From assembly GCA_965261105.1 (NCBI GenBank), contig CBDHCM010000006.1, positions 1,284,405 to 1,348,404 of the forward strand: a DNA stretch of 64,000 nucleotides, written 5' to 3'. Position 1 is the stretch's first letter; the number at the start of each line of letters is the position of its first letter. A program made the translations under genes and the position numbers. The DNA comes from Candidatus Aldehydirespirator sp. GTDB taxonomy: Bacteria; Actinomycetota; Acidimicrobiia; Acidimicrobiales; Aldehydirespiratoraceae. This document shows positions 8,072 through 62,854 of the stretch, one piece after another. The notes beneath the pieces are model-generated. The model worked only from the letters and a program-made list of their open reading frames with translations, was not told the origin of the DNA and searched no databases.

Positions 8072-10762
<2,691 letters not shown>

Positions 10763-10768: not shown

Positions 10769-11941
10769 GTGCAGGACTTCTCTGACGATCTGCGCCGGCT
10801 TCGGAGTCGCCTCGACGAGGCGCAGTCCTATCTGCGCGTCGAGGTTCTGCGGGGCCGGCGGCCCCAGCTCGAGGCGGAGTCGTCGCGCCCGGACCTCTGG
10901 GAGCAGCCCGAGCGGGCCCGGGCGGTCACCTCCGAGCTGGCCTCCATCAGCGAGGACCTGACGATGTTCGACCGTCTGGCGGCCGACATCTCCGATGCCG
11001 AGACTCTCAACCAGCTCGCGGTCGAGGAGGGCGCCGACTCCGAGGAGGCGGAGATAGCCCGGCTGGTGGGGGACATAGAGGCCCGCTTCGACGAGCTGGA
11101 GCTGCGCTCGCTGTTCACCGGAGAGTTCGACGAGCGGGACGCGGTGTGCCAGATCAAGTCGGGCGAGGGTGGAACCGACTCCCAGGACTGGGCCGAGATG
11201 CTGCTGAGGATGTACCGCCGCTGGGCCGAGCGCCGGGGCTTCGAGCTTGAGGTGACCGCGCTGTCGGAGGGGACCGAGGCCGGCTACTCCAGCGTGGACT
11301 TCCTGCTGAGGGGCCGCTGCGCCTACGGCTGGATGCGCTCCGAGCACGGCGTGCACCGCCTGGTGCGGATCTCTCCGTTCAACAACGAGGGCAAGCGCCA
11401 GACGGCCTTCACCGCAGTGGACGTAGCGCCGTTCTTCGAGGAGGTCCCCGCGGAGGTGGCCATCGACGAGAAGGATCTCCGCATCGACACCTACCGCTCC
11501 TCGGGCGCGGGCGGCCAGCACGTGAACGTCACCGACTCCGCGGTGCGGATCACCCACCTGCTGACCGGGATCGTGACCAGCTGCCAGAACGAGCGCAGCC
11601 AGCATCAGAACAAGGAGCGGGCCATGCAGATGCTGGCCGCGAAGCTGCTCAACCTGGAGCGCAAGCGTCGCTCCGACGAGATCGCCGGGATCAAGGGCGA
11701 GCAGCGCAGGGTGGGCTTCGGCAGCCAGATCCGCAGCTACGTGATGCAGCCCTACCAGATGGTGAAGGACCAGCGCACCCGGCACGAGACCCCCAACGTC
11801 GAAGCCGTCCTGGGCGGGGACCTCGATCCGTTCATGGAGTCCTGGCTCCGCTGGAGCCGGGCCTCGGGTGCCGCGGGCGTGCCCGAGGGGGCTGGTACTG
11901 TCGCCGCGCCGGGCCGGGCGGCCGCAGGCGTGTCCGAGTGA
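10769..11941 (+). CDS. prfB: peptide chain release factor 2 (single ORF, no +1 frameshift)
   Basis: 390 aa with RF2 tripeptide SPF (RISPFNNEGKRQTAF) and the GGQ motif SGAGGQHVN. A short Ala/Gly-rich C-terminal tail is present. Confidence 0.93.
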   Translation: MQDFSDDLRRLRSRLDEAQSYLRVEVLRGRRPQLEAESSRPDLWEQPERARAVTSELASISEDLTMFDRLAADISDAETLNQLAVEEGADSEEAEIARLVGDIEARFDELELRSLFTGEFDERDAVCQIKSGEGGTDSQDWAEMLLRMYRRWAERRGFELEVTALSEGTEAGYSSVDFLLRGRCAYGWMRSEHGVHRLVRISPFNNEGKRQTAFTAVDVAPFFEEVPAEVAIDEKDLRIDTYRSSGAGGQHVNVTDSAVRITHLLTGIVTSCQNERSQHQNKERAMQMLAAKLLNLERKRRSDEIAGIKGEQRRVGFGSQIRSYVMQPYQMVKDQRTRHETPNVEAVLGGDLDPFMESWLRWSRASGAAGVPEGAGTVAAPGRAAAGVSE

Positions 11942-19731: not shown

Positions 19732-19766
19732 CCTGTCTCACATCCAGATCGACCACCGGATAGGGG

Positions 19767-35415: not shown

Positions 35416-35438
35416 AGAAGGGTGTTAGGCTGGGCCGC

Positions 35439-42612: not shown

Positions 42613-45600
42613 TCAGCCGGAGAAGTATAGCTGTATCACCGCTAGCACGTCGTCTTTGGTGATTCGGCCGGCGAAGTAGTCGGCCACCGCCGCGATGGTC
42701 TCGTCACGGTCGACCACTTCGTTGTTGTCCACGTCGTAGGAACCTGAGTGCACGTCGGTGACTGTGATGGTCACCGCGACGGTCGCGCTCGCGCCCGATG
42801 AGTCCGTGGCAGTGACGGTCACCTCGTAGACGTTCTTGTCGGCCTCGTAGTCCAGTGCCGTCTCGGCCCGGACCCTGATCTGGCCCGTGTCGGCGTCGAT
42901 GGTGAACAAGGCCGCGTCGGCGCCGCCGAGCGTGTAGGTCAGCGCGCCGCCGTCCTGGCCCATGACTGCGACCGGACCGCCCACGACCTCGCCCTCGCCG
43001 GTGTTCTCCGCCACGCTCCTCTCTGCCACGTCGTCGTCGTCGGCGACGGTCACAGCCACCCCGGCGACGGCCACCGCGGCGTACTCGGCGGCGCTGCCGG
43101 CGGCCACCACCATGTGCGAGACGGCGGCCGCGTCGTCCACCGCGTCGGCGTCGTGGGCCGCGGCCACCGTCACCGTCTGGGCCGTGCTCCACGTGGCCGT
43201 GGTGAAGGTCAGGGTGCTCTGGTCGCCGGACGCCGCGGCGTCGGTGTCCACCGTCACGTCGGCGTTGTCGCTGGTCACGCTGATCACCACGTCAGAGGCG
43301 GGCTCGGCGTCGAGGACCACCGTGTAGGCGTTGGCGCCGCCCTCGGCCACCGCCACCTCGGTGGCCGACACCGTCACCCCCGGCCTCTCGCTCACGGTGA
43401 CAAAGAAGCGCAGGCCAACACTGTCGCCGTCGGAATCGGTCGCGGTGTAGGTGAACCGGGTCCGCGGCAACGCCGCGCCGGGCGTGCCGGTGATGGTGCG
43501 GTTCGAGTTGAAGCGCAGCCCCGGCGGCAGCCCCGGCGACAGGCTGTACCGCAGGCCGCCGTCACCCCGAAGAGCGGAGGGCAGGCTCACCGTCCCCACA
43601 TCCTCACCCACCGTATAGATCTGGTCGCCCACCGTACGCGAGGAGAACGTCGGAATCTGGTCGGGCGAAACACCGCCGCCGGGCGAACCACCACCGCCGG
43701 GCGAACCACCGCCACCGGGCGAACCACCGCCACCGGGCGAACCACCACCGGACGGCGGGGTTACGGTGTCGTCGTCGGCGACGGTCACCGCCACCGCGGC
43801 GATGGTCGCGTTGTCGAACTCGTTGGCGCTGCGGGAGGCGTTGACGGCGTGGGCGATGGATGCCGTGTCGTTCGCGGTGTCGGTGTCGTGGGCGGCCCGC
43901 ACCGTCACCGTCTGGGCTGTGCCCCAGTTGCTGGTGGTGAAGGTCAGGGTGGCCGGCGTTGCCGTCACGTCGCTGCTGCCGCTCCTGGTGACGTTGATCA
44001 CCACGTTGGATGCGGGCTGGGCGTCGAGCACCACGGTGTAGGTGTTGTTGGCGCCCTCGGCGACTGTCAGCGCGGACTTGGACACCGTCACCGCGGCGTC
44101 GTCGTCGGTGACGGTGACGCTCACCGCGGCGATGGTCACGGTGTCGTACTCGTTGGCGCTTTGGGAGGCGTTGACGGTGTGGGTGATGGATGCTGTGTCG
44201 TTCGCGGTGTCGGTGTCGTGGGCGGCCCGCACCGTCACCGTCTGGGCTGTGCTCCAGTTGCTCGGGGTGAGCGTCAGGGTGGCCGGCGTCGCGGTCACGT
44301 CGCTGCTGCCGCTCCTGGTGACGTTGATCACCACGTTGGATGCGGGCTGGGCGTTCAGCACCACGGTGTAGGTGTTGTTGGCGCCCTCGCCCACTGTCAG
44401 CGTGGACTTGGACACGGTCACCGCGGCGGTGTCGTCGTCGGTGACGGACACGCTCACCGCGGCGACGGTCACGGTGTCGTACTCGTTGGCGCTGCGGGAG
44501 GCGTTGACGGCGTGGCTGATGGAGGCGGTGTCGTTCGCCGTGTCGGCGTCCTGGGCGGCCCGCACCGTCACCGTCTGGGCTGTGCCCCAGTTGCTGGCAG
44601 TGAAGGTCAGGGTGGCCGGAGTCGCGGTCACGTCGCTGCTGCCGCTTTTGGTGACGTTGATCACCACATTGGCGGAGGGCTGGGTGTTCAACACCACCGT
44701 GTAAGTCTTGTTGGCGCCTTCGGCCACCGTCACCGCAGACTCAGACACGGTCACCGCGGCGGTGTCATCGTCGGTCACAGACACCGCCACCGAGGCGACG
44801 ATAGTCACACCGTCGTACTCGTTGGCGCTTCGAGAGGCGATGACGGGGTGGGCGATGGAGGCTGTGTCGTTCACAGCGTCAGCGTCTTGGGCAGCAGCCA
44901 CCGTCACCGTCTGAGCTGTGCTCCAGTTGCTGGTGGTGAAAGTCAAAGTGGCCGGCGACGCGGTCACGTCGCTGCTGCCGCTCCTGGTGACGTTGATCAC
45001 CACATTGGCGGAGGGCTGGGTGTTCAACACCACCGTGTAAGTCTTGTTGGCACCCTCAGCCACCGTCACCGAGGACGCGGACAGGGTAACCCCGGCGGAG
45101 TCATCGTCGGTCACAGACACCGCCACCGCGGCGATAGTCACGTTGTCATACTCGTCGGCGCTTGAGGCAGCCACCACCGCGTGGGCGATGGAGGCTGTGT
45201 CGTTCACAGCGTCGGCGTCTTGGGCGGCGGCCACGGTCACCGTCTGAGTTGTGCTCCAGGTGCTGGAAGTGAAAGTCAAAGTGGCCGGCGACACCGTCAC
45301 GTCGCTGCTGCCGCTCCTGGTGACGTTGATCACCACATTGGCGGAGGGCTGGGTGTTCAACACCACCGTGTAAGTCTTGTTGGCGCCCTCAGCCACCGTC
45401 ACCGAGGACGCGGACAGGGTAACCCCGGCGGTGTCATCGTCGGTCACAGACACCGCCACCGCGGCGATAGTCACGTTGTCATACTCGTCGGCGCTTGAGG
45501 CAGCCGCCACCGCGTGGGCGATGGAGGCTGTGTCGTTCACAGTGTCGGCGTCTTGGGCGGCGGCCACGGTCACCGTCTGAGTTGTGCTCCAGGTGCTGGT

Positions 45601-48600: not shown

Positions 48601-50910
48601 CCAGTTGCTGGTGGTGAAAGTCAAAGTGGCCGGCGACGCGGTCACGTCGCTGCTGCCGCTTCTGGTGACGTTGATCACCACATTGGCGGATGGCTGGGTG
48701 TTCAACACCACCGTGTAAGTCTTGTTGGCGCCTTCGGCCACCGTCACCGAGGACGCGGACAGGGTAACCCCGGCGGAGTCATCGTCGGTCACAGACACCG
48801 CCACCGCGGCGATAGTCACGTTGTCATACTCGTCGGCGCTTGAGGCAGCCACCACCGCGTGGGCGATGGAGGCTGTGTCGTTCACAGTGTCGGCGTCTTG
48901 GGCGGCGGCCACGGTCACCGTCTGAGTTGTGCTCCAGGTGCTGGTGGTGAAAGTCAAAGTGGCTGGCGAGACCGTCACGTCGCTGCTGCCGCTCCGAGCC
49001 ACACTGATCACCACATTGGCGGATGGCTGGGTGTTCAACACCACCGTGTAAGTCTTGTTGGCGCCTTCGGCCACCGTCACCGAGGACGCGGACAGGGTAA
49101 CCCCGGCGGTGTCGTCGTCGTCGACAGACACCGCCACCGCGGCGATAGTCACAGCATCGTACTCGTCGGCGCTTGAGGCAGCCACCACCGCGTGGGCGAT
49201 GGAGGCTGTGTCGTTCACAGTGTCGGCGTCTTGGGCAGCAGCCACCGTCACCGTCTGAGTTGTGCTCCAGGTGCTGGTGGTGAAAGTCAAAGAGGCCGGC
49301 GAGACCGTCACGTCGCTGCTGCCGCTCCGAGCCACACTGATCACCACATTGGCGGAGGGCTGGGTGTTCAACACCACCGTGTAAGTCTTGTTGGCGCCTT
49401 CGGCCACCGTCACCGAGGACGCGGACAGGGTAACCCCGGCGGTGTCGTCGTCGTCGACAGACACCGCCACCGCGGCGATAGTCACAGCATCGTACTCGTC
49501 GGCGCTTGAGGCAGCCACCACCGCGTGGGCGATGGAGGCTGTGTCGTTCACAGCGTCAGCGTCTTGGGCAGCAGCCACCGTCACTATCTGAGCTGTGCCC
49601 CAGGTGCTGGTGGTGAAAGTCAAAGTGGCCGGCGAGACCGTCACGTCGCTGCTGCCGCTCCTGGTGACGTTGATCACCACATTGGCGGAGGGCTGGGTGT
49701 TCAACACCACCGTGTAAGTCTTGTTGGCACCCTCAGCCACCGTCACCGAGGACGCGGACAGGGTAACCCCGGCGGAGTCATCGTCGGTCACAGACACCGC
49801 CACCGCGGCGATAGTCACAGCATCGTACTCGTCGGCGCTTGAGGCAGCCACCACCGCGTGGGCGATGGAGGCTGTGTCGTTCAGCGCGTCGGTGTCGTGG
49901 GCGGCGGCCACGGTCACTGTCTGGGCTGTGTCCCAGGTGCTGGTGGTGAAGGTCAGGGTGGCCGGCGAGACCGTCACGTCGGCGCTGCCGCTCCTGGTGA
50001 CGTTGATCACCACGTCAGATGCGGGCTGGGCGTTCAGCACCACCGTGTAGGTGCTGTTGGCGCCCTCGTCCACTGTCAGCGTGGACTCAGACACGGTCAC
50101 CGCAGCGGCGTCGTCGTCGGTGACGGTCACGGTCACCGCGGCGATGGTCGCGTTGTCGTACTCGTTGGCGCTTTGGGAGGCGTTGACGGCGTGGCTGATG
50201 GAGGCCGTGTCGTTCGCGGTGTCGGCGTCGTGGGCGGCGGCGACGGTCACTGTCTGGGCTGTGTCCCAGGTGCTGGTGGTAAAGGTCAGGGTGGCCGGCG
50301 TCGCCGTCACCTCGCTGCTGCCGCTCCTGGTGACGTTGATCACCACGTCAGATGCGGGCTGGGCGTCGAGCACCACCGTGTAGGTGCTGTTGTTGCCCTC
50401 GGCGACTGTCAGCGTGGACTCGGACACGCTCACCGCGGCGTCGTCGTCGGTGACGGTGACGGTCACCGCGGCGATGGCGGCTGCGTCGTACTCGTCGGCG
50501 CTGCGGGAGGCGGCGACGGCGTGGGTGATGGAGGCTGTGTCGTTCGCCGCGTCGGTGTCGTGGCCGGCGGCGACGGTCACTGTCTGGGCTGTGTCCCAGT
50601 TGCTGGTGGTGAAGGTCAGGGTGGCCGGCGTCGCGGTCACCTCGCTGCTGCCGCTCCTGGTGACGTTGATCACCACGTCCGATGAGGGCTGGGCGTCGAG
50701 CACCACCGTGTAGGTGTTGTTGGCGCCCTCGGCGACTGTCAGCGTGGACTTGGACACGCTCACCGCGGCGTCGTCGTCGGTGACGGTGACGGTCACCGCG
50801 GCGATGGCGGCTGCGTCGTACTCGTCGGCGCTGCGGGAGGCGGCGACGGCGTGGGTGATGGAGGCTGTGTCGTTCGCCGCGTCGGTGTCGTGGCCGGCGG
50901 CGACGGTCAC
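42613..50910 (-). CDS. distal (3') 2765 codons of the giant repetitive surface protein
   Basis: It begins inside a repeat unit, so there is no genuine N-terminus. About 21 units of ~110-111 aa read VT(V/L)S.S.(L/V)TV.EG...TYTVVL..QP...VVI.V..SGSS.VT..PATLTFT.S.W.T.QTVTVAA..D.D..NDTASI.H.V....SA.EYD...IAAV.V.V.DDD. These are followed by a (GGGSP)n linker, an He_PIG-like domain (LPPGLRFNSNRTITGTP), one more repeat, a cadherin domain and an EF-hand-like tail. Confidence 0.85.
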   Translation of the reverse strand: MTVAAGHDTDAANDTASITHAVAASRSADEYDAAAIAAVTVTVTDDDAAVSVSKSTLTVAEGANNTYTVVLDAQPSSDVVINVTRSGSSEVTATPATLTFTTSNWDTAQTVTVAAGHDTDAANDTASITHAVAASRSADEYDAAAIAAVTVTVTDDDAAVSVSESTLTVAEGNNSTYTVVLDAQPASDVVINVTRSGSSEVTATPATLTFTTSTWDTAQTVTVAAAHDADTANDTASISHAVNASQSANEYDNATIAAVTVTVTDDDAAAVTVSESTLTVDEGANSTYTVVLNAQPASDVVINVTRSGSADVTVSPATLTFTTSTWDTAQTVTVAAAHDTDALNDTASIAHAVVAASSADEYDAVTIAAVAVSVTDDDSAGVTLSASSVTVAEGANKTYTVVLNTQPSANVVINVTRSGSSDVTVSPATLTFTTSTWGTAQIVTVAAAQDADAVNDTASIAHAVVAASSADEYDAVTIAAVAVSVDDDDTAGVTLSASSVTVAEGANKTYTVVLNTQPSANVVISVARSGSSDVTVSPASLTFTTSTWSTTQTVTVAAAQDADTVNDTASIAHAVVAASSADEYDAVTIAAVAVSVDDDDTAGVTLSASSVTVAEGANKTYTVVLNTQPSANVVISVARSGSSDVTVSPATLTFTTSTWSTTQTVTVAAAQDADTVNDTASIAHAVVAASSADEYDNVTIAAVAVSVTDDDSAGVTLSASSVTVAEGANKTYTVVLNTQPSANVVINVTRSGSSDVTASPATLTFTTSNWSTTQTVTVAAAQDADAANDTASIAHAVVAASSADEYDAVTIAAVSVSVTDDDAAVTVSGSALTVDEGGSGSYTVVLDAQPSSDVVINVTKSGSSDVTVSPATLTFTTSSWGTAQTVTVAAAQDADAANDTASIAHAVDASRSANEYVNVTIAAVTVTVTDDDAAVTVSKSALTVDEGGSGSYTVVLDAQPSSDVVINVTKSGSSDVTATPATLTFTTNNWSTAQTVTVAAAHDADTANDTASITHTVDASRSANEYDNATIAAVTVTVTDDDTAAVTMSKSTLTVAEGNNNTYTVVLDAQPSSDVVINVTRSGSSDVTATPATLTFTTSNWSTAQTVTVAAAHDADTANDTASITHTVDASRSANEYDNASIAAVTVTVTDDDTAAVTVSKSTLTVAEGNNNTYTVVLDAQPSSNVVIAVTSNNSDVTVDTDTGTSGSQDTLTFTPINWSTAQTVTVAAAHDADTANDTASISHAVNAAESANEYDNATIAAVTVTVTDDDTAAVTLSASSVTVAEGANKTYTVVLNTQPASDVVINVTRSGSSDVTATPATLTFTSSNWGTAQTVTVAAAQDADAVNDTASIAHAVVAASSADEYDAVTIAAVAVSVTDDDTAGVTLSETAVTVAEGANKTYTVVLNTQPSANVVINVTRSGSSDVTATPATLTFTTSNWSTTQTVTVAAAQDADTVNDTASIAHAVVAASSADEYDAVTIAAVAVSVTDDDTAGVTLSETAVTVAEGANKTYTVVLNTQPSANVVINVTRSGSSDVTASPATLTFTTSNWSTTQTVTVAAAQDADTVNDTASIAHAVVAASSADEYDNVTIAAVAVSVTDDDTAGVTLSETAVTVAEGANKTYTVVLNTQPSANVVINVTRSGSSDVTVSPATLTFTTSNWSTTQTVTVAAAQDADTVNDTASIAHAVVAASSADEYDAVTIAAVTVSVDDDDTAGVTLSASSVTVAEGANKTYTVVLNTQPSANVVINVTRSGSNDVTVSPATLTFTTSTWSTTQTVTVAAAQDADTVNDTASIAHAVAAASSADEYDNVTIAAVAVSVTDDDTAGVTLSASSVTVAEGANKTYTVVLNTQPSANVVINVTRSGSSDVTVSPATLTFTSSTWSTTQTVTVAAAQDADAVNDTASIAHAVVAASSADEYDNVTIAAVAVSVTDDDSAGVTLSASSVTVAEGANKTYTVVLNTQPSANVVINVTRSGSSDVTASPATLTFTTSNWSTAQTVTVAAAQDADAVNDTASIAHPVIASRSANEYDGVTIVASVAVSVTDDDTAAVTVSESAVTVAEGANKTYTVVLNTQPSANVVINVTKSGSSDVTATPATLTFTASNWGTAQTVTVRAAQDADTANDTASISHAVNASRSANEYDTVTVAAVSVSVTDDDTAAVTVSKSTLTVGEGANNTYTVVLNAQPASNVVINVTRSGSSDVTATPATLTLTPSNWSTAQTVTVRAAHDTDTANDTASITHTVNASQSANEYDTVTIAAVSVTVTDDDAAVTVSKSALTVAEGANNTYTVVLDAQPASNVVINVTRSGSSDVTATPATLTFTTSNWGTAQTVTVRAAHDTDTANDTASIAHAVNASRSANEFDNATIAAVAVTVADDDTVTPPSGGGSPGGGGSPGGGGSPGGGGSPGGGVSPDQIPTFSSRTVGDQIYTVGEDVGTVSLPSALRGDGGLRYSLSPGLPPGLRFNSNRTITGTPGAALPRTRFTYTATDSDGDSVGLRFFVTVSERPGVTVSATEVAVAEGGANAYTVVLDAEPASDVVISVTSDNADVTVDTDAAASGDQSTLTFTTATWSTAQTVTVAAAHDADAVDDAAAVSHMVVAAGSAAEYAAVAVAGVAVTVADDDDVAERSVAENTGEGEVVGGPVAVMGQDGGALTYTLGGADAALFTIDADTGQIRVRAETALDYEADKNVYEVTVTATDSSGASATVAVTITVTDVHSGSYDVDNNEVVDRDETIAAVADYFAGRITKDDVLAVIQLYFSG

Positions 50911-53900: not shown

Positions 53901-56900
53901 AAGGTCAGGGTGGCCGGCGATGCGGTCACGTCGCTGCTGCCGCTCTTGGTGACGTTGATCACCACATTGGCGGAGGGCTGGGCGTCGAGCACCACCGTGT
54001 AGGTGTTGTTGGCGCCCTCGTCCACTGTCAGCGTGGTTTCGGACACGGTCACCGCGGCGGTGTCGTCGTCGGTGACGGTCACCGCCACCGCGGCGATGGT
54101 CGCGTTGTCGTACTCGTCGGCGCTTTGGGAGGCCACCGCGTGGGCGATGGAGGCTGTGTCGTTCACCGCGTCGGCGTCGTGGGCGGCGGCGACGGTCACT
54201 GTCTGGGCTGTGTCCCACGTGCTGGTGGTGAAGGTCAGGGTGGCCGGCGATGCGGTCACGTCGCTGCTGCCGCTGCTGGTGACGTTGATCACCACATTGG
54301 CGGAGGGCTGGGCGTCGAGCACCACCGTGTAGGTGTTGTTGGCGCCCTCGGCGACTGTCAGCATGGACTCGGACACGGTCACCGCGGCGTCGTCGTCGGT
54401 GACGGTGACGCTCACCGCGGCGATGGTCGCGTCGTCGTACTCGTTGGCGCTTTGGGAGGCGTTGACGGCGTGGGTGATGGAGGCCGTGTCGTTCGCCGCG
54501 TCGGTGTCGTGGGCGGCGGCGACGGTCACTGTCTGGGCTGTGTCCCAGTTGCTGGTGGTGAAGGTCAGGGTGGCCGGCGTCGCCGTCACGTCGCTGCTGC
54601 CGCTCTTGGTGACGTTGATCACCACGTCAGAGGAGGGCTGGGCGTCGAGCACCACCGTGTAGGAGCTGCTGCCGCCCTCGGCCACCGTCAGCGCGGACTG
54701 GGACACCGTCACCGCAGCGTCGTCGTCGTCGACGGTGACGGTCACCGCGGCGATGGAGGCGTTGTCGTACTCGTCGGCGCTGCGGGAGGCGTCGACGGCG
54801 TGGGCGATGGAGGCCGCGTCGTTCGCCGCGTCGGTGTCGTGGCCGGCGGCGACGGTCACTGTCTGGGCTGTGTCCCAGTTGCTGGTGGTGAAGGTCAGGG
54901 TGGCCGGCGTCGCCGTCACGTCGGCGCTGCCGCTCTTGGTGACGTTGATCACCACGTCAGAGGAGGGCTGGGCGTCGAGCACCACCGTGTAGGAGCCGCT
55001 GCCGCCCTCGGCCACCGTCAGCGCGGACTGGGACACCGTCACCGCGGCGTCGTCGTCGTCGACGGTGACGGTCACCGCGGCGATGGAGGCGTTGTCGTAC
55101 TCGTCGGCGCTGCGGGAGGCGTCGACGGCGTGGGCGATGGAGGCCGCGTCGTTCACCGCGTCGGCGTCGTGGGCGGCGGCGACGGTCACTGTCTGGGCTG
55201 TGTCCCAGTTGCTGGTGGTGAAGGTCAGGGTGGCCGGCGTCGCCGTCACGTCGCGGTTGTCGCTGGACACCGCGATCACCACGTCAGAGGAGGGCTGGGC
55301 GTTCAGCACCACCGTGTAGTTGCTGTTGGCGCCCTCGGCCACCGTCAGCGCGGACGTGGACACGGTCACCCCGGTGTCGTCGTCGGTGACGGTCACAGTC
55401 ACCGCGGCGATGGTCGCGGTGTCGTACTCGTCGGCGCTTTCGGCGGCCACCACCGCGTGGGTGATGGAGGCCGCGTCGTTCGCCGTGTCGGTGTCGTGGG
55501 CGGCGGCCACGGTCACTGTCTGGGCTGTGCTCCAGCTGCTGGTGGTGAAGGTCAGGGTGGCCGGAGTCGCCGTCACGTCGCTGTTGTCGCTGGACACCGC
55601 GATCACCACGTCGGATGCGGGCTGGGCGTCGAGCACCACCGTGTAGGTGCCGCTGTCGCCCTCGTCCACCGTCAGCGCGGACTTGGACACGGTCACCGCG
55701 GCGTCGTCGTCGGTGACGGTGACGGTCACCTCGGCGATGGTCGCGGTGTCGTACTCGTCGGCGCTTTCGGCGGCCATCACCGCGTGGGTGATGGAGGCCG
55801 TGTCGTTCACCGCGTCGGCGTCGTGGGCGGCGGCCACCGTCACTGTCTGGGCTGTGCTCCAGTTGCTGGGGGTGAAGGTCAGGGTGGCCGCAGTCGCGGT
55901 CACGTCGCGGTTGTCGCTGGACACCGCGATCACCACGTCGGAGGAGGGCTCGGCGTCCAGCACCACCGTGTAGGAGCCGTTGGCGCCCTCGGCCACCGTC
56001 AGCGCGGACTCGGACACGGTCACCGCGGCGGTGTCGTCGTCGGTGACGGTCACCGCCACCCCGGTGATGGAGGCTGGGTCGTACGCGTCGGCGCTTTCAT
56101 CGGCCACCACCGCGTGGGTGATGGAGGCCGTGTCGTTCACCGCGTCGGCGTCGTGGGCGGCGGCCACCGTCACCGTCTGGGCCGTGCTCCAGTCGCTGGT
56201 GGTGAAGGTCAGCTTCGCCGGCGACGCCGTCACGTCGCGGTTGTCGCTGAACACCGCGATCACCACGTCAGAGGAGGGCTCGGCGTCCAGCACCACCGTG
56301 TAGGTGCTGTCGGCGCCCTCGGCCACCGTCAGCGTGGACTTGGACACCGTCACCGCGGCGTCGTCGTCGGTGACGGTGACGCTCACCGCGGCGATGGAGG
56401 CGTTGTCGTACTCGTCGGCGCTGCGGGAGGTGTCGACGGCGTGGGCGATGGAGGCCGTGTCGTTCGCCGCGTCGGCGTCGTGGGCGGCGGCCACCGTCAC
56501 CGTCTGGGCCGTGCCCCAGTTGCTCGGGGTGAAGGTCAGCTTCGCCGGCGACGCCGTCACGTCGGCGCTGCCGCTCCTGGTGACGTTGATCACCACGTCA
56601 GAGGAGGGCTGGGCGTCGAGCACCACCGTGTAGGTGTTGTTGGCGCCCTCGGCCACCGTCAGCGCGGACTTGGACACCGTCACCGCGGCGTCGTCGTCGG
56701 TGACGGTCACGCTCACCGCGGCGATGGTCGCGGTGTCGTACTCGTCGGCGCTGAGGGAGGTGTCGACGGCGTGGGTGATGGAGGCCGCGTCGTTCGCCGC
56801 GTCGGCGTCGTGGGCGGCGGCCACCGTCACCGTCTGGGCCGTGCGCCAGTTGCTCGGGGTGAAGGTCAGCGTGTTCTGGCTGCCGGACGTCCCCGTGTCG

Positions 56901-59900
56901 GTGTCCACCGTCACGTCGGAATTGTCGCTGGACACCGCGATCACCACGTCGGAGGAGGGCTGGGCGTCGAGCACCACCGTGTAGTTGTCGTTGGCGCCCT
57001 CGGCCACCGTCAGCGCGGTTTCGGACACCGTCACCGCGGCGGTGTCGTCGTCGGTGACGGACACCGCCACCCCGGCGATGGCGGCCGCGTCGAACTCGTC
57101 GGCGCTTTCGGCGGCCACCACCGCGAGGCTGATGAAGGCCATGTCGTTCACCGCGTCGGCGTCGTGGGCGGCGGCCACCGTCACCGTCTGGGCCGTGCTC
57201 CAGTTGCTGGTGGCGAAGGTCAGCCTCGCCGGCGACACCGTCACGTCGCGGTTGTCGCCGGACACCGTGATCACCACGTCAGAGGAGGGCTGGGCGTCCA
57301 GCACCACCGTGTAGGAGCCGCTGGCGCCCTCGGCCAACGTCAGCGTGGACTTGGACACGGTCACCGCGGCGGTCTCGTCGTCGTCGACGGACACCGCCAC
57401 CGCGGCGATGGCGGCTGCGTCGTACGCGTCGGCGCTTTCGGCGGCCACCACCGCGTGGGCGATGGAGGCCGTGTCGTTCACCGCGTCGGCGTCCTCGGCG
57501 GCCCGCACCGTCACCGTCTGGGCCGTGCTCCAGTTGCTGGAGGTGAAGGTCAGCTTCGCCGGAGTCGCCGTCACGTCGCTACTGCCGCTCTTGGTGACGC
57601 TGATCACCACGTCAGAGGAGGGCCGTTTGTTCAGCACCACCGTGTAAGTGCTGTTGCCGCCCTCGATCACCGACACCGCGGTTTCGGACACCGTCACCCC
57701 GACGGCGTCGTCGTCGACGACGATCACCTCCACCACGTTGTCGTATCTCAAGCCGTTGTACTGGCTGCAGGGGCACCGTACAATGTAGGAAAGTTGGACC
57801 CTGTGGCCTCCCTCGGTGCCCTGTTCGGCGGACACCGTCACCGTCTGCGCTGTGTCCCAATTCCCGGAACCGAAGATCAGCCCCGTCGACGACAGCGTCA
57901 CGTTCCCGTCGGAGACGAAAGTAATGAAGACCGTCGCGGCGAAGCCGGGTGGGGGTGAGGTGTTCAGCACCACGGTGTAGGTGGCGCTGCCGCCCTCGGG
58001 CACCGTCAGCCTGGACACGGAGCTTGTCACCCCGGCGGTGGGGGTTTCGTCGTCGACGACGGTCACCCTCACCCGGGCGATGGTCACGGTGTCGTACTCG
58101 TCGGCGCTTTCGGCGGCCACCACCGCGTGGGTGATGGAGGCCGTGTCGTTGGCGGCGTCGGCGTCCTGGTCCGCGGCCACCGTCACCGTCTGCGCCGTGC
58201 TCCAGTTGCTCGGGGTGAAGGTCAGCGTGCTCTGGCTGCCGGACGTCCCCGTGTCGGTGTCCACCGTCACGTCGGAGTTGTCGCTGGTCACCGCGATCAC
58301 CACGTCGGAGGCGGGCTGGGCGTCCAACACCACGGTGTAGGTTTTGCTGGCGCCCTCGTCCATCCTCAGCCTCCGCCTGGACACCGTCACGCCGGCGGTG
58401 TCGTCGTCGTCGACGGTCACGGTCACGCCGGCGATGGTCACGGTGTCGTACTCGTCGGCGCTTTGGGCGGCCACCACCGCGTGGGTGATGGAGGCCGTGT
58501 CGTTCACGGGGTCGTCGTCGTGGGCGGCGGCCACCGTCACCGTCTGGGCCGTGCTCCAGTTGCTCGAGGTGAAGGTCAGCGTGTTCTGGTTGCCGGACGT
58601 CCCCGTGTCGGTGTCCACCGTCACGGCCGAATTGTTGCTGGTCACCGTGATCACCGCGTCGGAGGTGGGCTGGGCGTCGAGCACCACGGTGTAGGTGGCG
58701 CTGGCGCCCTCGGCCACTGTCAGCGTGGTTGCGGACACCGTCACGCCGGCGGTCTCGTCGTCGGTGACGGTCACGGCCACCCCGGCGGCGGCCAAGCCGC
58801 TGTACGGGCCGGACGGGTCGCCGGACGACACAGTGTAGCGCAGCTGGGCTTCGTCGTTCACCGCGTCGGCGTCGTGGGCGGCGGCCACCGTCACCGTCTG
58901 CGGTGTGTCCCAGTTGCTCGGGGTGAAGGTCAGCCGGTTCTGGTTGCCTGGCTGCGTAGCGTCGGTGTCCGACGTCACGTCCGGGTTGTCGTCGGCGATG
59001 ATAATCGCCACGTCGGCGGAGGGCCGGGTGTTCAGCACCACGGTGTAGGTGGCGCTGCCGCCCTCGGCCACCGCCAGCGTGGATTCGGAGTTTGTCACGC
59101 CCGCGTCGTCGTCGGCGACGGTCACCGCCACCCCGGCGATGGTGGCGGTGTCGTACTCGTCGGCGCTTTCGGCGGGCGCCACCGCGTGGGCGATGGCGGC
59201 CGTGTCGTCGGCGGCGTCGGCGTCGTGGGCGGCGGCCACCGTCACGGTCTGGGCCGTGCTCCAGTTGTCCCCGGTGAAGGTCAGCCGCGCCGGCGTCGGC
59301 GTCACGGCCGAATTGTTGCTGGTCACCGTGATCACCACGTCGGAGGAGGGCGGGGTGTCCAGCCTCACCGTGTAGGTGTTGCTGGCGCCCTCGGCCACTG
59401 TCAGCGTGGTTCTGGACACCGTCACCGCGGCGGTCTCGTCGTCGGTGACGGTCACGGCCACCCCGGAGGCGAGCACGCGGCTGTACGGGCCGGACCTGTT
59501 GACCCTGTAGCTTACCGCGTGGTCCAGTTGGGCTTGGTCGTCGGCGGCGTCGGCGTCGTGGGCGGCGGACACCTTCACCGTCTGCGGCGTGTTCCAGTTG
59601 CCCGGGGTGAAGAGCATGAAGGCCTGGTCGCCTTGGTTAACCGCGTCGGCGTCCACCTTCACGTCCCCGTTGTTGCGGTCGATGCGAATCAGCACGACGG
59701 CGACGGGCTGGGCGTTCAGCACCACGGTGTAGTTGTCGTTGGCGCCCTCGGCCAACGTCAGCGTGGTTCTGGACACCGTCACCCCGGCGGTCTCGTCGTC
59801 GGTGACGGTCACGGTCACCCCGGAGGCGAGCACGCTGTTGTACGGGCCAGACCTGTTGACCCTGTAGCTTACCGCGTGGTCCAGTTGGGCTTGGTCGTCC

Positions 59901-60480
59901 GCGGCGTCGGCGTCGTGGGGGGCGGACACCTTCGCCGTCTGCGGCGTGTTCCAGTTGTCCGGGGTGAAGAGCATGACGGCCTGGTCGCCTTCCCTGCCCG
60001 CGTCGGCGTCCACCCCCACGTCCGGGTTCTTGCGGTCAATGCGAATCACCACGTCGGCGGCGGGCTGGGCGTCGAGCACCACGGTGTAGGTGGCGCTGGC
60101 GCCCTCGGCCACCGTCAGCATGGTTTCGGACACCGTCACCCCGGCGGTGTCGTCGTCGGTGACGGTCACGGCCACCCCGGCGATGGTGGCGGTGTCGTAC
60201 TCGTCGGCGCTTTCGGCGGGCACCACCGCGTGGGCGATGGCGGCCGAGTCGTTCACCGCGTCGGCGTCCTGGGCGGCGGCCACCGTCACCGTCTGCGCCG
60301 TGTCCCAGTTGGACCGGGTGAAGGTCAGCCGGTCCTGGTTGCCGGACGTCGCCGCGTCGGTGTCCAGCGTCACGTCGGAACTGCCGCCGGCGGTCACCGT
60401 GATCACCACGTCGGAGGCGGGCTGGCCGTCCAGCACCACGGTGTAGGCGGCGCGGCCGCCCTCGGCCAACGTCAGCGCGG
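43330..60480. repeat. tandem array of about 50 coding repeats, period 327-351 bp (mostly 330/333 bp)
   Basis: The periodicity shows in the antisense ORF ladder (stops every 330-333 bp from 43766 to 58694) and in the protein. Sub-arrays at about 44.7-47.0 kb and 48.4-49.9 kb are near-identical. Confidence 0.95.
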
Positions 60481-62854
60481 TCTCGGACACGCTCACCCCG
60501 ACCGGAGGCGCCGCAACCGGGGCGTCCGTTTTCTGTTGCGCATTCTTGCCCGATCCTCGGCTGTCGGTGTAAGTCGCCGTGGCTCGCAGGTAGCTGCCGA
60601 CGTCGGCGGCAACCGGTCTGTACGTGGACGACGTTGCGCCGGCAATAGCGGTCCACGTGGTTTGGTCCGAGGATTTGCTCCAGGTCCAAACGATGCTGGA
60701 AACACCCCCGTCGGGGTCGGTGACACTGGCCGTCAGGTCTACGCCGACGACGGGTGCTCGCGACGACAGGGCCATCGCGCCCGCCTCCTCCTCGTCGGTA
60801 ACAGTGATGGTCAGGGTTACTCTGCTGCTCGAGCTGTTGGGGTCGGTGGCGACAACATCGACCTGGTACGAGGATTTGGTCTCGTAGTCGAGCGGCGCGT
60901 TGGCCCGCAATTCCCCGACGGCAGTGTTTTTGATGTTGAAGGAGGCCGCGTCGGTCCCGCCCAGGGAGTAGGTGACAGCCTCGCCGTTCGGCTCTTCGGC
61001 CGCAACAGTGGCGACGATGGTGGTGATATCGGCGTTCTCCGGCGTATTGTGGGTGGTGTCGGTATCGGCCGGGAACCGGGGAGCCACCTGGGGAGTGACC
61101 CGCAGGATCTTGTCCGCGCCGTTTCCCTCGGAGGTGGAGACATACAGGGCGCCATCGGGCCCCATCATCGGGGTGCGGAGCCGGCCATAGGCGGTCTTGA
61201 GTTTGCTGACGCTTATCTCGCTCAACAGGTCGCCGGACGGACTGAACTCAAGGACGCGCAATGACTTGTCCTTGAGGGACGCCATCGCCAGCCGGCCATC
61301 CCACGGGCCCCACCAGGCGCCCTCCAGGAAGATGCCGCCGCTGGCGGCCAGGGTTGTGTTCCCGGAGGCCCACTTGGCATCGATGGCGCTGGGGAATTTC
61401 TCCAGGTCGGTCATGGGTGCTGACTCGTTGTACCCGGGCACCGGGTCCCAGCCGTAATTGCCGCCGGCGGTCAACAGATTGATCTCGTCGTCAAAAGTCG
61501 GGCCGTGCTCCACCAACCACATCTGGCCGCCGGCGCCGGGGCGCAGGGCCAGGCCCTGGGGGTTGCGGTGGCCGTAGGTGTAGATCAGCGGCGAATTGGG
61601 GGCAGAGAATCGGTTGCCCGGCGCCCCGGCGCCAGTCGATGCGACTACCCGCAGCACCTTGCCGCCAAGGCTGGTCAGGCTCTGGGGCGCCGATCCGGTT
61701 GTCGCATCCCCGGTAGCAATCCAAAGATAGCCGTCCGGCCCGAAGCGCAGCCGGCAGCCGGAATGGATGGTACCGCCGCCGGGTATCCCACCGACCAGGG
61801 GGTCGGCGACCCGGGTGGCCGCCGTATATTCAGCGTTCATGGTCCAGGCAATTACCTGCACCTTGTTCCCGGTGTCGCCCTGGCAAGTATAGAACCGCCG
61901 GTTGGTGGCGAAGCCTGGATCGACGGCTATCGCCATAAACCCGATTTCTCCTGAGGCCCTCAGATCGCTGAGGTCAGCGGTGACTTGCCGCACCGTTCCG
62001 TCGGCGAGGCGGACGCTCAGCTTGCCGGCGCGTTCGGTGAACAGCATCGTCTTGTCGGGCGCAAAGGCGATTCCCCAGGGGATGCTCAGGCCCGAGACGA
62101 GCTGTTCCACATGAATCTGCGCCGCCGCCGCTTTGGCAGCCACACGGCCGGCAACAGCATTCGCGCTCTTGGGGGGTCCCGGCCCGTCGCGGTATCCCAC
62201 GGAGGCCCGCAAGTAATGATTCAGGTCGGTGGTTTGAACTTCGTAGGAGCTAGGGAAAGGCCTACCAGATTGAACATCCGACCAATCTGTTGTCCCGTCG
62301 CTGGACTTCGCCCAGGACCAGACGCCTGAGCTGACCGCAACTCCTTCCGGATCGCTCACCCTGGCCCGGAGCACCTCGCCGACCCGTGGCTGCCCGGGAG
62401 ACACGATGACCGTTCGGGGCTCGTCCACGTCGGTTACGCTGATGGTGACGTCAATAGTGGCGTCGATGGCCGTGTCAGCGTTGCCGGTGGCATCCTTCCG
62501 GTCGCTGGCCGACACCGTAACGCTGTAGGAGTTCTTGCCCTCGAAATCCAGGCCGGCCCGCGTCTGCAGCTGGCCGGTGGAGGCCACGATGGAGAAGGAC
62601 GCGGCATCGTCGCCGCCCAGCGTGTAGGTCAACGCATCGTCGTCCGCGTCGGTGGCCCCGACAGGCTCGCCGACGTTTGCGCCTGCGGCGGTGTTCTCGG
62701 GCACCGATCGCGCGCCGTCCTCGCTGGACGGGAACGCCGGTTGGCTGTTGGCCGCCTGCGCCGCAGCGCTGCCCCGGGCCGGGAAGGCCAACAGCAAGGC
62801 GCACACCGCGGCCGCAAGCAGGATTCGATTCAAACAGCAAACATCTTCGACCAT
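50348..62854 (-). CDS. proximal (5') part of the giant repetitive surface protein; in frame only down to about 50955, after which the ORF is out-of-frame read-through
   Basis: Signal peptide NRILLAAAVCALLLAFPARGSAAAQA. Cadherin repeat ENTAAGANVGEPVGATDADDDALTYTLGG...LDFE...VTISVTDVDEP. A W-x-W-x-x-S-S-D domain follows, then a soluble PQQ-glucose/sorbosone-dehydrogenase-like propeller at 61085-62107 (GLSIPWGIAFAPD..., HSGCRLRFGPDGYLWIATGD, YGHRNPQGLA, EHGPTFDDEINLL..GGNYGWD). A second cadherin domain and second WxW domain come next, then about 29 repeat units. The tail after ...DAQPSSD turns into Arg/His/Pro junk. Confidence 0.85.
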   Translation of the reverse strand: MVEDVCCLNRILLAAAVCALLLAFPARGSAAAQAANSQPAFPSSEDGARSVPENTAAGANVGEPVGATDADDDALTYTLGGDDAASFSIVASTGQLQTRAGLDFEGKNSYSVTVSASDRKDATGNADTAIDATIDVTISVTDVDEPRTVIVSPGQPRVGEVLRARVSDPEGVAVSSGVWSWAKSSDGTTDWSDVQSGRPFPSSYEVQTTDLNHYLRASVGYRDGPGPPKSANAVAGRVAAKAAAAQIHVEQLVSGLSIPWGIAFAPDKTMLFTERAGKLSVRLADGTVRQVTADLSDLRASGEIGFMAIAVDPGFATNRRFYTCQGDTGNKVQVIAWTMNAEYTAATRVADPLVGGIPGGGTIHSGCRLRFGPDGYLWIATGDATTGSAPQSLTSLGGKVLRVVASTGAGAPGNRFSAPNSPLIYTYGHRNPQGLALRPGAGGQMWLVEHGPTFDDEINLLTAGGNYGWDPVPGYNESAPMTDLEKFPSAIDAKWASGNTTLAASGGIFLEGAWWGPWDGRLAMASLKDKSLRVLEFSPSGDLLSEISVSKLKTAYGRLRTPMMGPDGALYVSTSEGNGADKILRVTPQVAPRFPADTDTTHNTPENADITTIVATVAAEEPNGEAVTYSLGGTDAASFNIKNTAVGELRANAPLDYETKSSYQVDVVATDPNSSSSRVTLTITVTDEEEAGAMALSSRAPVVGVDLTASVTDPDGGVSSIVWTWSKSSDQTTWTAIAGATSSTYRPVAADVGSYLRATATYTDSRGSGKNAQQKTDAPVAAPPVGVSVSETALTLAEGGRAAYTVVLDGQPASDVVITVTAGGSSDVTLDTDAATSGNQDRLTFTRSNWDTAQTVTVAAAQDADAVNDSAAIAHAVVPAESADEYDTATIAGVAVTVTDDDTAGVTVSETMLTVAEGASATYTVVLDAQPAADVVIRIDRKNPDVGVDADAGREGDQAVMLFTPDNWNTPQTAKVSAPHDADAADDQAQLDHAVSYRVNRSGPYNSVLASGVTVTVTDDETAGVTVSRTTLTLAEGANDNYTVVLNAQPVAVVLIRIDRNNGDVKVDADAVNQGDQAFMLFTPGNWNTPQTVKVSAAHDADAADDQAQLDHAVSYRVNRSGPYSRVLASGVAVTVTDDETAAVTVSRTTLTVAEGASNTYTVRLDTPPSSDVVITVTSNNSAVTPTPARLTFTGDNWSTAQTVTVAAAHDADAADDTAAIAHAVAPAESADEYDTATIAGVAVTVADDDAGVTNSESTLAVAEGGSATYTVVLNTRPSADVAIIIADDNPDVTSDTDATQPGNQNRLTFTPSNWDTPQTVTVAAAHDADAVNDEAQLRYTVSSGDPSGPYSGLAAAGVAVTVTDDETAGVTVSATTLTVAEGASATYTVVLDAQPTSDAVITVTSNNSAVTVDTDTGTSGNQNTLTFTSSNWSTAQTVTVAAAHDDDPVNDTASITHAVVAAQSADEYDTVTIAGVTVTVDDDDTAGVTVSRRRLRMDEGASKTYTVVLDAQPASDVVIAVTSDNSDVTVDTDTGTSGSQSTLTFTPSNWSTAQTVTVAADQDADAANDTASITHAVVAAESADEYDTVTIARVRVTVVDDETPTAGVTSSVSRLTVPEGGSATYTVVLNTSPPPGFAATVFITFVSDGNVTLSSTGLIFGSGNWDTAQTVTVSAEQGTEGGHRVQLSYIVRCPCSQYNGLRYDNVVEVIVVDDDAVGVTVSETAVSVIEGGNSTYTVVLNKRPSSDVVISVTKSGSSDVTATPAKLTFTSSNWSTAQTVTVRAAEDADAVNDTASIAHAVVAAESADAYDAAAIAAVAVSVDDDETAAVTVSKSTLTLAEGASGSYTVVLDAQPSSDVVITVSGDNRDVTVSPARLTFATSNWSTAQTVTVAAAHDADAVNDMAFISLAVVAAESADEFDAAAIAGVAVSVTDDDTAAVTVSETALTVAEGANDNYTVVLDAQPSSDVVIAVSSDNSDVTVDTDTGTSGSQNTLTFTPSNWRTAQTVTVAAAHDADAANDAASITHAVDTSLSADEYDTATIAAVSVTVTDDDAAVTVSKSALTVAEGANNTYTVVLDAQPSSDVVINVTRSGSADVTASPAKLTFTPSNWGTAQTVTVAAAHDADAANDTASIAHAVDTSRSADEYDNASIAAVSVTVTDDDAAVTVSKSTLTVAEGADSTYTVVLDAEPSSDVVIAVFSDNRDVTASPAKLTFTTSDWSTAQTVTVAAAHDADAVNDTASITHAVVADESADAYDPASITGVAVTVTDDDTAAVTVSESALTVAEGANGSYTVVLDAEPSSDVVIAVSSDNRDVTATAATLTFTPSNWSTAQTVTVAAAHDADAVNDTASITHAVMAAESADEYDTATIAEVTVTVTDDDAAVTVSKSALTVDEGDSGTYTVVLDAQPASDVVIAVSSDNSDVTATPATLTFTTSSWSTAQTVTVAAAHDTDTANDAASITHAVVAAESADEYDTATIAAVTVTVTDDDTGVTVSTSALTVAEGANSNYTVVLNAQPSSDVVIAVSSDNRDVTATPATLTFTTSNWDTAQTVTVAAAHDADAVNDAASIAHAVDASRSADEYDNASIAAVTVTVDDDDAAVTVSQSALTVAEGGSGSYTVVLDAQPSSDVVINVTKSGSADVTATPATLTFTTSNWDTAQTVTVAAGHDTDAANDAASIAHAVDASRSADEYDNASIAAVTVTVDDDDAAVTVSQSALTVAEGGSSSYTVVLDAQPSSDVVINVTKSGSSDVTATPATLTFTTSNWDTAQTVTVAAAHDTDAANDTASITHAVNASQSANEYDDATIAAVSVTVTDDDAAVTVSESMLTVAEGANNTYTVVLDAQPSANVVINVTSSGSSDVTASPATLTFTTSTWDTAQTVTVAAAHDADAVNDTASIAHAVASQSADEYDNATIAAVAVTVTDDDTAAVTVSETTLTVDEGANNTYTVVLDAQPSANVVINVTKSGSSDVTASPATLTFTTSTWDTAQTVTVAAGHDADAVNDTASITHAVDASRSANEYHNVTIAAVTVTVTDDDTAAVTVSKATLTVAEGNNNTYTVVLDAQPASNVVINVTKSGSADVTATPATLTFTTSTWDTAQTVTVAAGHDTDAANDTASITHAVDASRSADEYDAAAIAAVTVTVTDDDAAVSVSKATLTVAEGNNNTYTVVLDAQPSSDVVINVTRSGSSDVTATPATLTFTTSSWDTAQTVTVAAGHDTDAANDTASITHTVDASRSANEYDNATIAAVSVSVTDDDAAVTVSKSTLTVAEGNNSTYTVVLDAQPASNVVINVTRSGSSEVTVSPATLTFTTSSWDTAQTVTVAAAHDTDAVNDTASITHTVDAAESANEYDNVTIAAVTVTVTDDDTAAVTVSKSTLTVAEGNNNTYTVVLDAQPASNVVINVTKSGSSDVTATPATLTFTTNNWSTAQTVTVAAAHDTDAVNDTASITHAVNASQSAAEYDNATIAAVTVTVTDDDTAAVTVSETTLTVAEGANNTYTVVLDAQPSSDVVINVTKSGSSDVTATPATLTFTTNNWDTAQTVTVAAAHDTDTANDTASIAHAVVDAESAAEYDNATIAAVAVTVTDDDTAAVTVSETTLTVAEGANNTYTVVLDAQPSSDVVIAVSSDNRDVTATPATLTFTPSNWDTAQTVTVAAAHDTDTANDTASIAHAVVDAESAAEYDNATIAAVAVTVTDDDTAAVTVSETTLTVAEGANNTYTVVLDAQPSSDVVINVTKSGSSDVTATPATLTFTTNNWDTAQTVTVAAAHDTDTANDTASIAHAVVDAESAAEYDNATIAAVAVTVTDDDTAAVTVSETTLTVAEGANSNYTVVLNAQPSSDVVIAVSSDNRDVTATPATLTFTPSNWDTAQTVTVAAAHDADAANDTASITHAADASQSADEYDNAAIAAVTVTVTDDDAAVSVSKSTLTVAEGNNSTYTVVLDAQPSSDAVTRNSEVTAHPDLHHQQLGHSPDSDRRRRPRHRRGERHSLHHPRRRRLPQRRRVRRSRHRRGDRHRHRRRRRGERVQVHADSRRGRQQHLHGGARRPALIGRGDQRHQERQQRGDRDAGHPDLHHQQLGHSPDSDRRRRPRHRRGERHSLHHPRRRRLPQRRRVRRSRHRRGDRHRHRRRRRGERVRVHADSRRGQQQHLHGGARRPARI

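Follow-up and report, generated by a model that had tools for sequence, protein, structure and literature searches.

The window analysed here, a 64,000-nt stretch of contig CBDHCM010000006.1 from Candidatus Aldehydirespirator sp., raises the question of what a bacterium makes from a 20-kb minus-strand locus that is filled with tandem repeats and is read, as assembled, in two overlapping open reading frames (ORFs). The answer we favour, with moderate confidence in the whole, is that the locus is one gene for a giant, Sec-exported fibrillar surface adhesin of a sponge-symbiotic member of the Acidimicrobiia. Proteins of this kind are known, both as giant Ca2+-dependent fibrillar adhesins and as eukaryote-like adhesion proteins found in sponge symbionts. 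What is new here is a stalk built of an unnamed, putatively Calx-beta-related unit, a head that contains a dehydrogenase, and an EF-hand tail that comes with a conserved partner gene.

One gene, a real array and a frame break

The two minus-strand ORFs, which encode 4168 and 2765 aa and overlap by 563 nt, form a single gene of 20,242 nt with its ATG at 62854 and its stop codon at 42613–42615 (Table 1). The sequence-only reading had given exactly this extent, and its estimate of about 6,755 codons after the return of 23 missing nt agrees with the repaired translation of 6,754 aa. It had also counted about 29 plus about 21 repeats of about 110 aa and one more further on. Splitting the translation at the unit motif gives 50 tandem units of 109–120 aa each (28 intact units, the damaged unit 29 and 21 more) and a solitary copy, unit 51, located C-terminal to the He_PIG domain. 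All the domains it had listed are present in the order it proposed, as judged by Pfam, by a hidden Markov model (HMM) of the unit and by reading of the sequence. Tandem Repeats Finder (TRF) describes the giant gene as 47 copies of a 333-nt period (score 16066). Two long ORFs cross the array on the opposite strand (51821–57958, +, 2045 aa, and 58127–61264, +, 1045 aa). These are shadow ORFs of the GC-rich repeats and not genes: the minus strand is the coding one, since all domain and homology evidence falls there.

The close relatives of the locus bear on the length of the array. An exact 54-mer of the β-propeller in the N-terminal head is shared with two long-read metagenome-assembled genomes (MAGs), that of a Ca. 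Poriferisodalis sp. (NZ_OZ253573.1) and that of a Ca. Aldehydirespiratoraceae bacterium. The former, which we refer to as the sister genome, is 97.5% identical to the window over 5.9 kb. On its chromosome, loci L014, L062 and L052 join into one unbroken ORF of 25,206 nt that encodes 8,401 aa with 66 units. A separate contig, L066 (ENA ERZ26694896 ctg117908_16.03x_l, 2059–20819), is 93.6% identical to the giant gene, colinear with it over 19.6 kb and equal to it in length within 15 nt. Another 13 long-read loci begin with the same head and continue into at least 29–30 units in frame. These sequence comparisons place the host close to Ca. Poriferisodalis, among the Acidimicrobiia that live in symbiosis with sponges. 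To these belong the Poriferisodalaceae (TK06), which are reported to be enriched in cadherin, fn3, leucine-rich repeat (LRR) and Calx-beta proteins (PMC11706023).

A rival account is an assembly artefact, with the array either over-expanded, a possibility that the sequence-only reading had raised against itself, or chimeric. Units 25 and 27 are identical, units 29 and 30 are nearly so, and a consensus scar lies inside the array, all of which would suit such an origin. The same-length independent contig and the intact 66-unit ORF of a complete chromosome, joined by the other loci with their long in-frame arrays, speak against it, and independent assemblies thus show arrays that are equal or longer. 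We hold an artefact to be extremely improbable and, on this alignment evidence, take the array to be real and not over-expanded.

Its copy number does vary, with 51 units in the window and 66 in the sister. Units 1–16 are one-to-one orthologues in the two genomes, and the remainder is reshuffled. Recombination with an extra paralogue of the sister was considered as the cause of the shorter array and rejected: the tail of the window protein is orthologous to that of the sister's giant protein, to which it is 90% identical, against 70–72% on the paralogue side.

The reading frame is broken once. Inside unit 29 the first ORF departs from the repeat frame after ...VVLDAQPSSD, where it continues as AVTRNSEVTAHP... 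Compared to the next unit, 23 nt are missing here. A stretch of about 60 nt holds all the losses, grouped in three small clusters, and its flanks show no further differences. In the Ca. Poriferisodalis chromosome the orthologous unit contains the 23 nt, and L066 has them too. The L066 copy of the gene, assembled at 16x coverage, is itself riddled with isolated 1-nt indels and falls into about 14 ORFs. Since both relatives carry the 23 nt and L066 displays the indel errors found in this type of data, the window frameshift is probably a consensus error rather than a real lesion. Phase variation at the scar was ruled out, there being no simple-sequence tract at this place.

The other reading of the break is that the gene is a true pseudogene in this strain. 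The 23-nt lesion, as well as a 64-nt lesion in a short paralogue of the giant gene nearby, would then be genuine, and either a 3,957-aa anchorless fragment or nothing would be made. Both tail-bearing genes of the window are indeed broken inside repeat units and both are intact in the sister genome, while the other window genes scanned keep intact domains, which means that errors are not genome-wide. Three separate small deletions in 60 nt with perfectly conserved flanks are, however, odd for mutation, and no further decay (no stops, no degraded units) is seen downstream of the scar. Furthermore, consensus errors in the array are demonstrably common, as the same gene carries many 1-nt indels in a related contig whose assembly is of the same type. 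A pseudogene is therefore the less likely of the two, albeit one to be taken seriously. Genes split by such indels are probably also the origin of many short "unit-only" entries in the public protein collection, and frame breaks inside arrays of this type in long-read MAGs call for caution, as they are often consensus errors.

The repeat unit and its ancestry

What is the unit made of? A single unit reaches the threshold of no Pfam or NCBIfam model. When 37 units were scanned singly, fn3_6 was touched by 25 of them (best E-value 3.1e-5) and LapA by six, all under the cut-offs. AlphaFold2, run on an alignment of the 37 units, predicts an all-β sandwich with a predicted local distance difference test (pLDDT) score of 96.5. 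A Foldseek search of the PDB with this model returns fold-level neighbours only, at 5–18% identity, namely PapD-like chaperones, MSP/ASH and subtilase Fn3-like domains.

The subtilase Fn3-like family fn3_6 (PF17766) is the best HMMER family of the unit, Foldseek matches Vpr, cucumisin and SBT3, and many homologues are tagged fn3_6 in public precomputed annotation. The gathering score of 26.4 bits is nevertheless unmatched by the reference unit (17.1 bits), by the best single unit and by a 3-unit segment (25.3 bits), and is exceeded only where the scores of multiple repeats are summed. Superposition of the unit model on the subtilase Fn3 domains 8jmw, 3vta and 3i74 gives a TMq of 0.45–0.65, and the PapD-like and MSP/ASH structures do equally well or better. 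Unlike the subtilases, the giant protein contains no protease, and the protein context is wholly different. Run against the PDB sequences, the unit profile gives one marginal match and no other, to the chitin-binding domains of archaeal chitinases (5dhe, E-value 7e-4); a chitin-binding identity found no support in Foldseek and was dropped.

The link to Calx-beta comes from L063, a relative from a Dehalococcoidia MAG, in which five bona fide Calx-beta repeats stand beside two units of the window type. The profile of these five repeats matches the calcium-binding domains of the sodium–calcium exchanger NCX at 1.8e-9. In an hhalign comparison, the unit profile aligns to the L063 Calx-beta profile over 75 columns with a probability of 93.1% and an E-value of 3.3e-7. 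The score of this pair is 43.6, whereas reversed and column-shuffled controls reach 16.2 at most. Because of this match to NCX-validated repeats, with clean controls, the unit is very probably a remote, unnamed relative of Calx-beta (PF03160), the domain of NCX CBD1/2 and of the sponge aggregation factor. More direct routes to the same family are silent: HMMER gives no PF03160 match even at E-values up to 1, either in a 3-unit segment or in the 37 single units, and the unit profile finds no NCX structure among the PDB sequences. The "Calx-beta-like logic" of the sequence-only reading hence holds as remote homology. Its failure to assign the repeat to a named family stands as well, for neither the HMM libraries nor structure prediction followed by Foldseek map the unit cleanly to a well-characterised one.

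Similar to Calx-beta, the unit is an Ig-like sandwich of about 110 aa, and the profile match extends over its first 75 columns. In contrast, its C-terminal third, which carries a short helical insert, SADEYD, stays unaligned, and its signature is LTFTxxNWxTAQTVTV and not the "DY...F.pGe..k" motif of Calx-beta. Within the unit E13 is invariant, and D70, D72, D76, D107 and D108 are conserved at 90% or more. The conserved acidic residues sit in the A–B loop, the E–F loop and the C-terminal DDD, which correspond to the sites of Ca2+ binding in the NCX CBD1 structures. According to strand parity in the predicted model, they would all be found at one pole of the unit, beside the next domain. It is reasonable to infer that the stalk units bind Ca2+.

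The unit represents a large domain family that is typical of giant proteins and has no model of its own in the libraries searched. Searched against the full library, the unit profile picks up 24,395 cluster representatives at E-values of 1e-3 or below and 5,890 at 1e-30 or below. Many of these unit-bearing representatives are 2,000–7,900 aa long, and a single protein can hold up to 67 repeats.

The family was also seen in other lineages: 36 units run in one frame in L057 (1853–15760), a scaffold of the sponge-symbiont MAG Gammaproteobacteria bacterium AqS3, and others are found in Pseudomonadales and Alphaproteobacteria MAGs (L058–L060).

The head, the tail and the partner gene

The order of the domains along the protein is given in Table 1. 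The signal peptide was read by eye from the translation, and the same signal is kept in the sister genome. Cadherin domains of the PF00028 family are found at both ends of the protein, where the N-terminal pair (Pfam E-value 6.9e-23, 81.3 bits) and the C-terminal copy (36.7 bits) exceed the cut-off of 28.8. The two WxW domains produce only weak SCAB-Ig and AIR9 Ig matches in Pfam, and homologues bear PF28399 Ig_CLSTN at this position.

Table 1. Features of the giant gene, its partner gene and its short paralogue in window coordinates
Feature	Coordinates	Strand	Description
Whole giant gene	42613..62854	-	Two overlapping ORFs, 50348..62854 (ATG start) and 42613..50910; 6,754 aa when repaired
Sec-type signal peptide, aa 1-34	62753..62854	-	Basic n-region, hydrophobic core LLAAAVCALLLAF, AQA/A cleavage motif
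Cadherin domain 1, aa 41-145	62420..62734	-	Pfam Cadherin; edges placed by eye
First WxW Ig-like domain, aa 146-223	62186..62419	-	Ig_CLSTN / AIR9-A9-like; sequence repeat of the second copy
GSDH β-propeller, aa 256-580	61115..62089	-	Pfam GSDH 1.9e-66; type of the soluble aldose/glucose/sorbosone dehydrogenases dependent on pyrroloquinoline quinone (PQQ)
Cadherin domain 2, aa 594-690	60785..61075	-	Pfam Cadherin, best stretch 604-686
Second WxW Ig-like domain, aa 691-764	60563..60784	-	Weak SCAB-Ig (4.6e-4) and IG_AIR9 matches
Array of 50 tandem units	43768..60499	-	109-120 aa each, Ig-like, probable remote relatives of Calx-beta, acidic DDD junction at the end of each
Scar in unit 29	50944..50986	-	23 nt missing, three short deletion clusters within ~60 nt
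(GGGSP)n linker	43663..43767	-	Flexible; from translation; TRF period 18 at 43662-43750
He_PIG Ig domain	43381..43662	-	Pfam He_PIG 2.4e-9
Unit 51, solitary repeat	43030..43380	-	Unit HMM, 146 bits
Cadherin domain 3	42751..43029	-	Pfam Cadherin 5.6e-9
C-terminal EF-hand tail	42616..42750	-	YDVDNNEVVDRDE loop, helix, DYFxGxIT..., helix, then LYFSG-stop
nb, 318 aa	41652..42608	-	Signal peptide, one CLIPPER-like Ig domain, (TTAAPT)n stalk, C-terminal transmembrane (TM) helix followed by RRRRR
Short paralogue	38197..41423	-	Signal peptide, partial cadherin, ~5 units, (GDSSD)n linker, He_PIG, unit, cadherin, same EF-hand tail

The propeller matches GSDH (PF07995) with 225 bits over profile positions 1–329 of 332, i.e. 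over nearly its full length. In the PDB it finds 2ism (1e-44) and also 3a9g, E. coli YliI (2g8s), sGDH (1c9u) and 7cdy. Alignments to 2ism, 3a9g and 7cdy reveal that the motifs HSGxRLRFGPDG, GHRNPQG and DEINLL..GGNYGW are kept. The catalytic and PQQ-binding sequence of the domain is thus preserved, and the domain may be active. Should the protein then be regarded mainly as a tethered enzyme, with a stalk that displays a PQQ-dependent sugar dehydrogenase to oxidise the sugars of the host or of the matrix and with adhesion as a secondary function? The strong GSDH match and its retained motifs would fit this, as would the conservation of the cadherin–Ig–GSDH–cadherin–Ig head in more than 1,000 proteins from many sponge-associated phyla. 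The sister protein, however, has lost about one blade of its propeller. This deletion of 66 aa corresponds to aa 284–349 of the window protein (window positions ~61808–62005) and lies between RL/AD and RV/AD; all other close homologues keep the segment. In addition, no electron acceptor or pqq gene was found among the window ORFs scanned, and a soluble dehydrogenase held 0.2 micrometres off the membrane would have no obvious redox partner. We regard the tethered-enzyme account as unlikely and retain the adhesin as the preferred one.

At the other end of the protein, the last 45 residues contain a canonical 12-residue EF-hand loop (D-V-D-N-N-E-V-V-D-R-D-E) with two helices after it. The profile built from 20 such tails finds GCAP1 (7.5e-8), lanmodulin and calerythrin in the PDB, and Pfam EF-hand_6 is touched by 19 of the 20 tails, each time under the cut-off. 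The C-terminus reads ...VIQLYFSG-stop and contains neither LPXTG nor a hydrophobic segment, which does not agree with sortase anchoring. No RTX or type I secretion system (T1SS) repeat family is significant in the C-terminal segment in Pfam or NCBIfam, and the window ORFs scanned include no ABC, membrane fusion protein (MFP), TolC, T1SS, sortase or SLH genes.

How could such a protein be kept on the cell? A candidate is the product of the next gene, nb, which starts 5 nt past the stop codon of the giant gene. Its (TTAAPT)n stalk is encoded by an 18-nt tandem repeat at 42000–42139. There are 228 nb homologues, nearly all without a Pfam match. The model of the nb domain (pLDDT 92.8) has the CLIPPER domain (formerly DUF11) of 9ifr as its best Foldseek match (TM-score 0.57), and distant nb homologues give faint matches to CLIPPER (PF01345), a domain covered in PMC12617251. 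A cohesin identity of nb finds no support, as AlphaFold2 and Foldseek favour a CLIPPER/CnaA-like fold and place the cohesin 2xdh no higher than rank 15 (TMq 0.55). In all 11 cases examined (the window, L018, L022, L047, L052, L053, two in L054, L063, L064 and L065), nb is the gene directly downstream of one that encodes cadherin domains and, at its end, the EF-hand tail. Such pairs are seen in Acidimicrobiia and Dehalococcoidia as well as in contigs of more distant origin, and the pair of L063 has a 4-nt overlap. On account of this conserved pairing, we propose that nb may be the membrane anchor of the tail, gene order being the basis for the proposal.

A bolder version of this idea is that the EF-hand tail and nb constitute a new Ca2+-dependent, non-covalent anchoring system, one that resembles dockerin–cohesin yet is unrelated to it and that carries exchangeable fibre cassettes across monoderm phyla, with a stalk that might also mimic a host aggregation factor. 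Similar to dockerin–cohesin of the cellulosome, a short C-terminal EF-hand-type Ca2+ module is encoded close to a small Ig-like partner anchored in the membrane or wall. Unlike a dockerin, for which it was also considered, the tail has no Dockerin_1 match and is an EF-hand module with a single canonical Ca2+ loop; its partner is CLIPPER/CnaA-like. We put this version forward tentatively and think it rather unlikely in its full extent.

The short paralogue encoded beyond nb has the signal peptide of the giant. It is split into two ORFs (39456..41423 and 38197..39465) by the 64-nt deficit, which is located near 39,500 in its last tandem unit. In the sister genome the paralogues are intact (958 and 641 aa) and stand in a different order.

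Several other features of the window were recorded. A PMT_2-type protein mannosyltransferase (3069–4502, +) is a possible source of glycosylation for stalks rich in Thr and Pro, that of nb among them. A Fic/DOC-domain protein (35358–36782, +) is encoded about 1.4 kb past the short paralogue. A defence-island-like cluster (15069–21092, +) comprises an Eco57I-like methylase, a helicase with SNF2/PLD domains (1057 aa) and an AAA_21 ATPase. A 1631-aa ORF without a Pfam match (6890–11785, -) is overlapped by the long plus-strand ORFs 8072..10762 and 10769..11941, and either strand could code.

A fibre shared among sponge symbionts

How widely is the gene distributed? A search of species-representative genomes with the 784-aa head finds 49 loci. 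Lists of protein homologues seemed restricted to lengths near that of the query, and full-length giants were not among the matches listed. Next after the two Acidimicrobiia come 11 head loci in ten MAGs labelled Dehalococcoidia, with 85–87% aa and 90–92% DNA identity; one of these, OZ253467.1, carries two copies (L009 and L010). All Dehalococcoidia-labelled loci run on into at least 29–30 in-frame units. Among these loci (L003–L013 and L040), most heads are 98–99.9% identical to each other in DNA, whereas their flanks are only 87–98% identical. The flanks of the Acidimicrobiia and the Dehalococcoidia loci are unrelated. No flanks are shared between the window and the Dehalococcoidia loci, which says little, as the window contains only 1.1 kb of upstream sequence. 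GC content was discarded as a marker of the direction of transfer, since all carrier loci have 60–70% GC. At least one carrier of each kind, Acidimicrobiia and Dehalococcoidia, is present in the same sample, ERZ26694896. With the titles of the records taken at face value, these identities point to a recent transfer of the gene between phyla, which fits the lateral transfer of cadherin and fn3 genes reported for sponge symbionts (PMC8163846). More distant heads, about 50–60% identical and often accompanied by SLH domains, occur in Acidobacteriota, Ca. Versatilivorator, Ca. Spongiisociaceae and Poribacteria.

The protein has the parts that make up a fibrillar adhesin, i.e. an export signal, a long stalk of Ig-like tandem domains and a terminal domain of a binding type; adhesion itself is predicted. 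In the mechanism that we propose, the far, N-terminal end of the fibre would be a binding and enzyme head composed of cadherin, Ig, PQQ-type sugar-dehydrogenase propeller, cadherin and Ig domains. The stalk of 50 Ig-like units would hold this head away from the cell. Seawater contains about 10 mM Ca2+. Bound by the acidic residues of the junctions, Ca2+ from seawater would stiffen the chain to a rod of about 0.2 micrometres, a length estimated from about 4 nm per Ig domain. The GGGSP hinge, He_PIG, one unit and a cadherin domain would then lead to the C-terminal EF-hand tail, which probably docks to the nb product in a Ca2+-dependent manner and so keeps the protein on the cell. Adhesion would take place in the sponge matrix.

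Several observations weigh against this picture. No solved Calx-beta structure is found in the Foldseek top 50 for the unit. The propeller deletion in the sister's otherwise intact 8,401-aa protein suggests that the head enzyme may be dispensable. No recognised wall-anchor (LPXTG, SLH or TM segment) is present in the giant protein. The nb domain has a generic Ig-like fold, and what speaks for tail–nb docking is the adjacency of the genes. Finally, both tail-bearing genes of the window are frame-broken as assembled, and real decay could be meant.

The ancestry of the unit suggests one more interpretation of the stalk, namely host mimicry. The aggregation factors of demosponges are built of Calx-beta domains (PMC5400394), and a Calx-beta-like stalk could imitate them, so that the symbiont would be woven into the Ca2+-dependent self-recognition matrix of the sponge or tolerated by it. 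The probable remote kinship of the unit with Calx-beta is in line with this, and so is the sharing of the gene by co-resident symbionts of different phyla. That kinship is distant, however, the likeness to the aggregation factor is one of domain class, and the unit occurs in about 24,000 protein clusters and may not be specific to sponges. We consider mimicry very unlikely, and the fibrillar adhesin remains the explanation that we prefer.

Among known systems, the closest in design are the fibrillar adhesins with Ca2+-stiffened Ig-like stalks, such as LapA, SiiE and MpIBP (surveyed in PMC12617251). Like them, the window protein is giant, contains tens of Ig-like repeats in tandem whose junctions are acidic, varies in repeat number between strains and has an adhesive head at one end and a cell-proximal module at the other. 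Unlike these adhesins, which are exported via C-terminal RTX/T1SS signals, it has an N-terminal Sec signal. Its unnamed stalk domain, the dehydrogenase propeller in its head and its monoderm host set it apart as well. In terms of biology, the closest are the eukaryote-like proteins of sponge symbionts. These bacteria, Poriferisodalaceae included, are enriched in proteins with cadherin, fn3 and Calx-beta domains, which also undergo lateral transfer (PMC8163846, PMC11706023). The two studies deal with the ecological group (Poriferisodalaceae and sponge Chloroflexota), the domain classes and the kind of transfer that are seen here, but by counting Pfam domains; this gene, its stalk unit and size, and the EF-hand tail with its partner are not described.

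Knowledge of sponge-symbiont adhesion proteins has thus been built on Pfam counts made on fragmented assemblies, and a single such protein can in fact reach 6,700–8,400 aa. Their stalk domain, unnamed in the current family libraries despite its presence in about 24,000 clusters, is overlooked by surveys that count domains. With the labels of the MAGs accepted, a 20-kb adhesin gene shared by Actinomycetota and Chloroflexota at 90–92% DNA identity, some of the carriers coming from one sponge sample, would be a clear case of inter-phylum movement. The pair formed by the EF-hand tail and its partner offers a possible route by which monoderm symbionts that have neither LPXTG nor SLH may retain their fibres.

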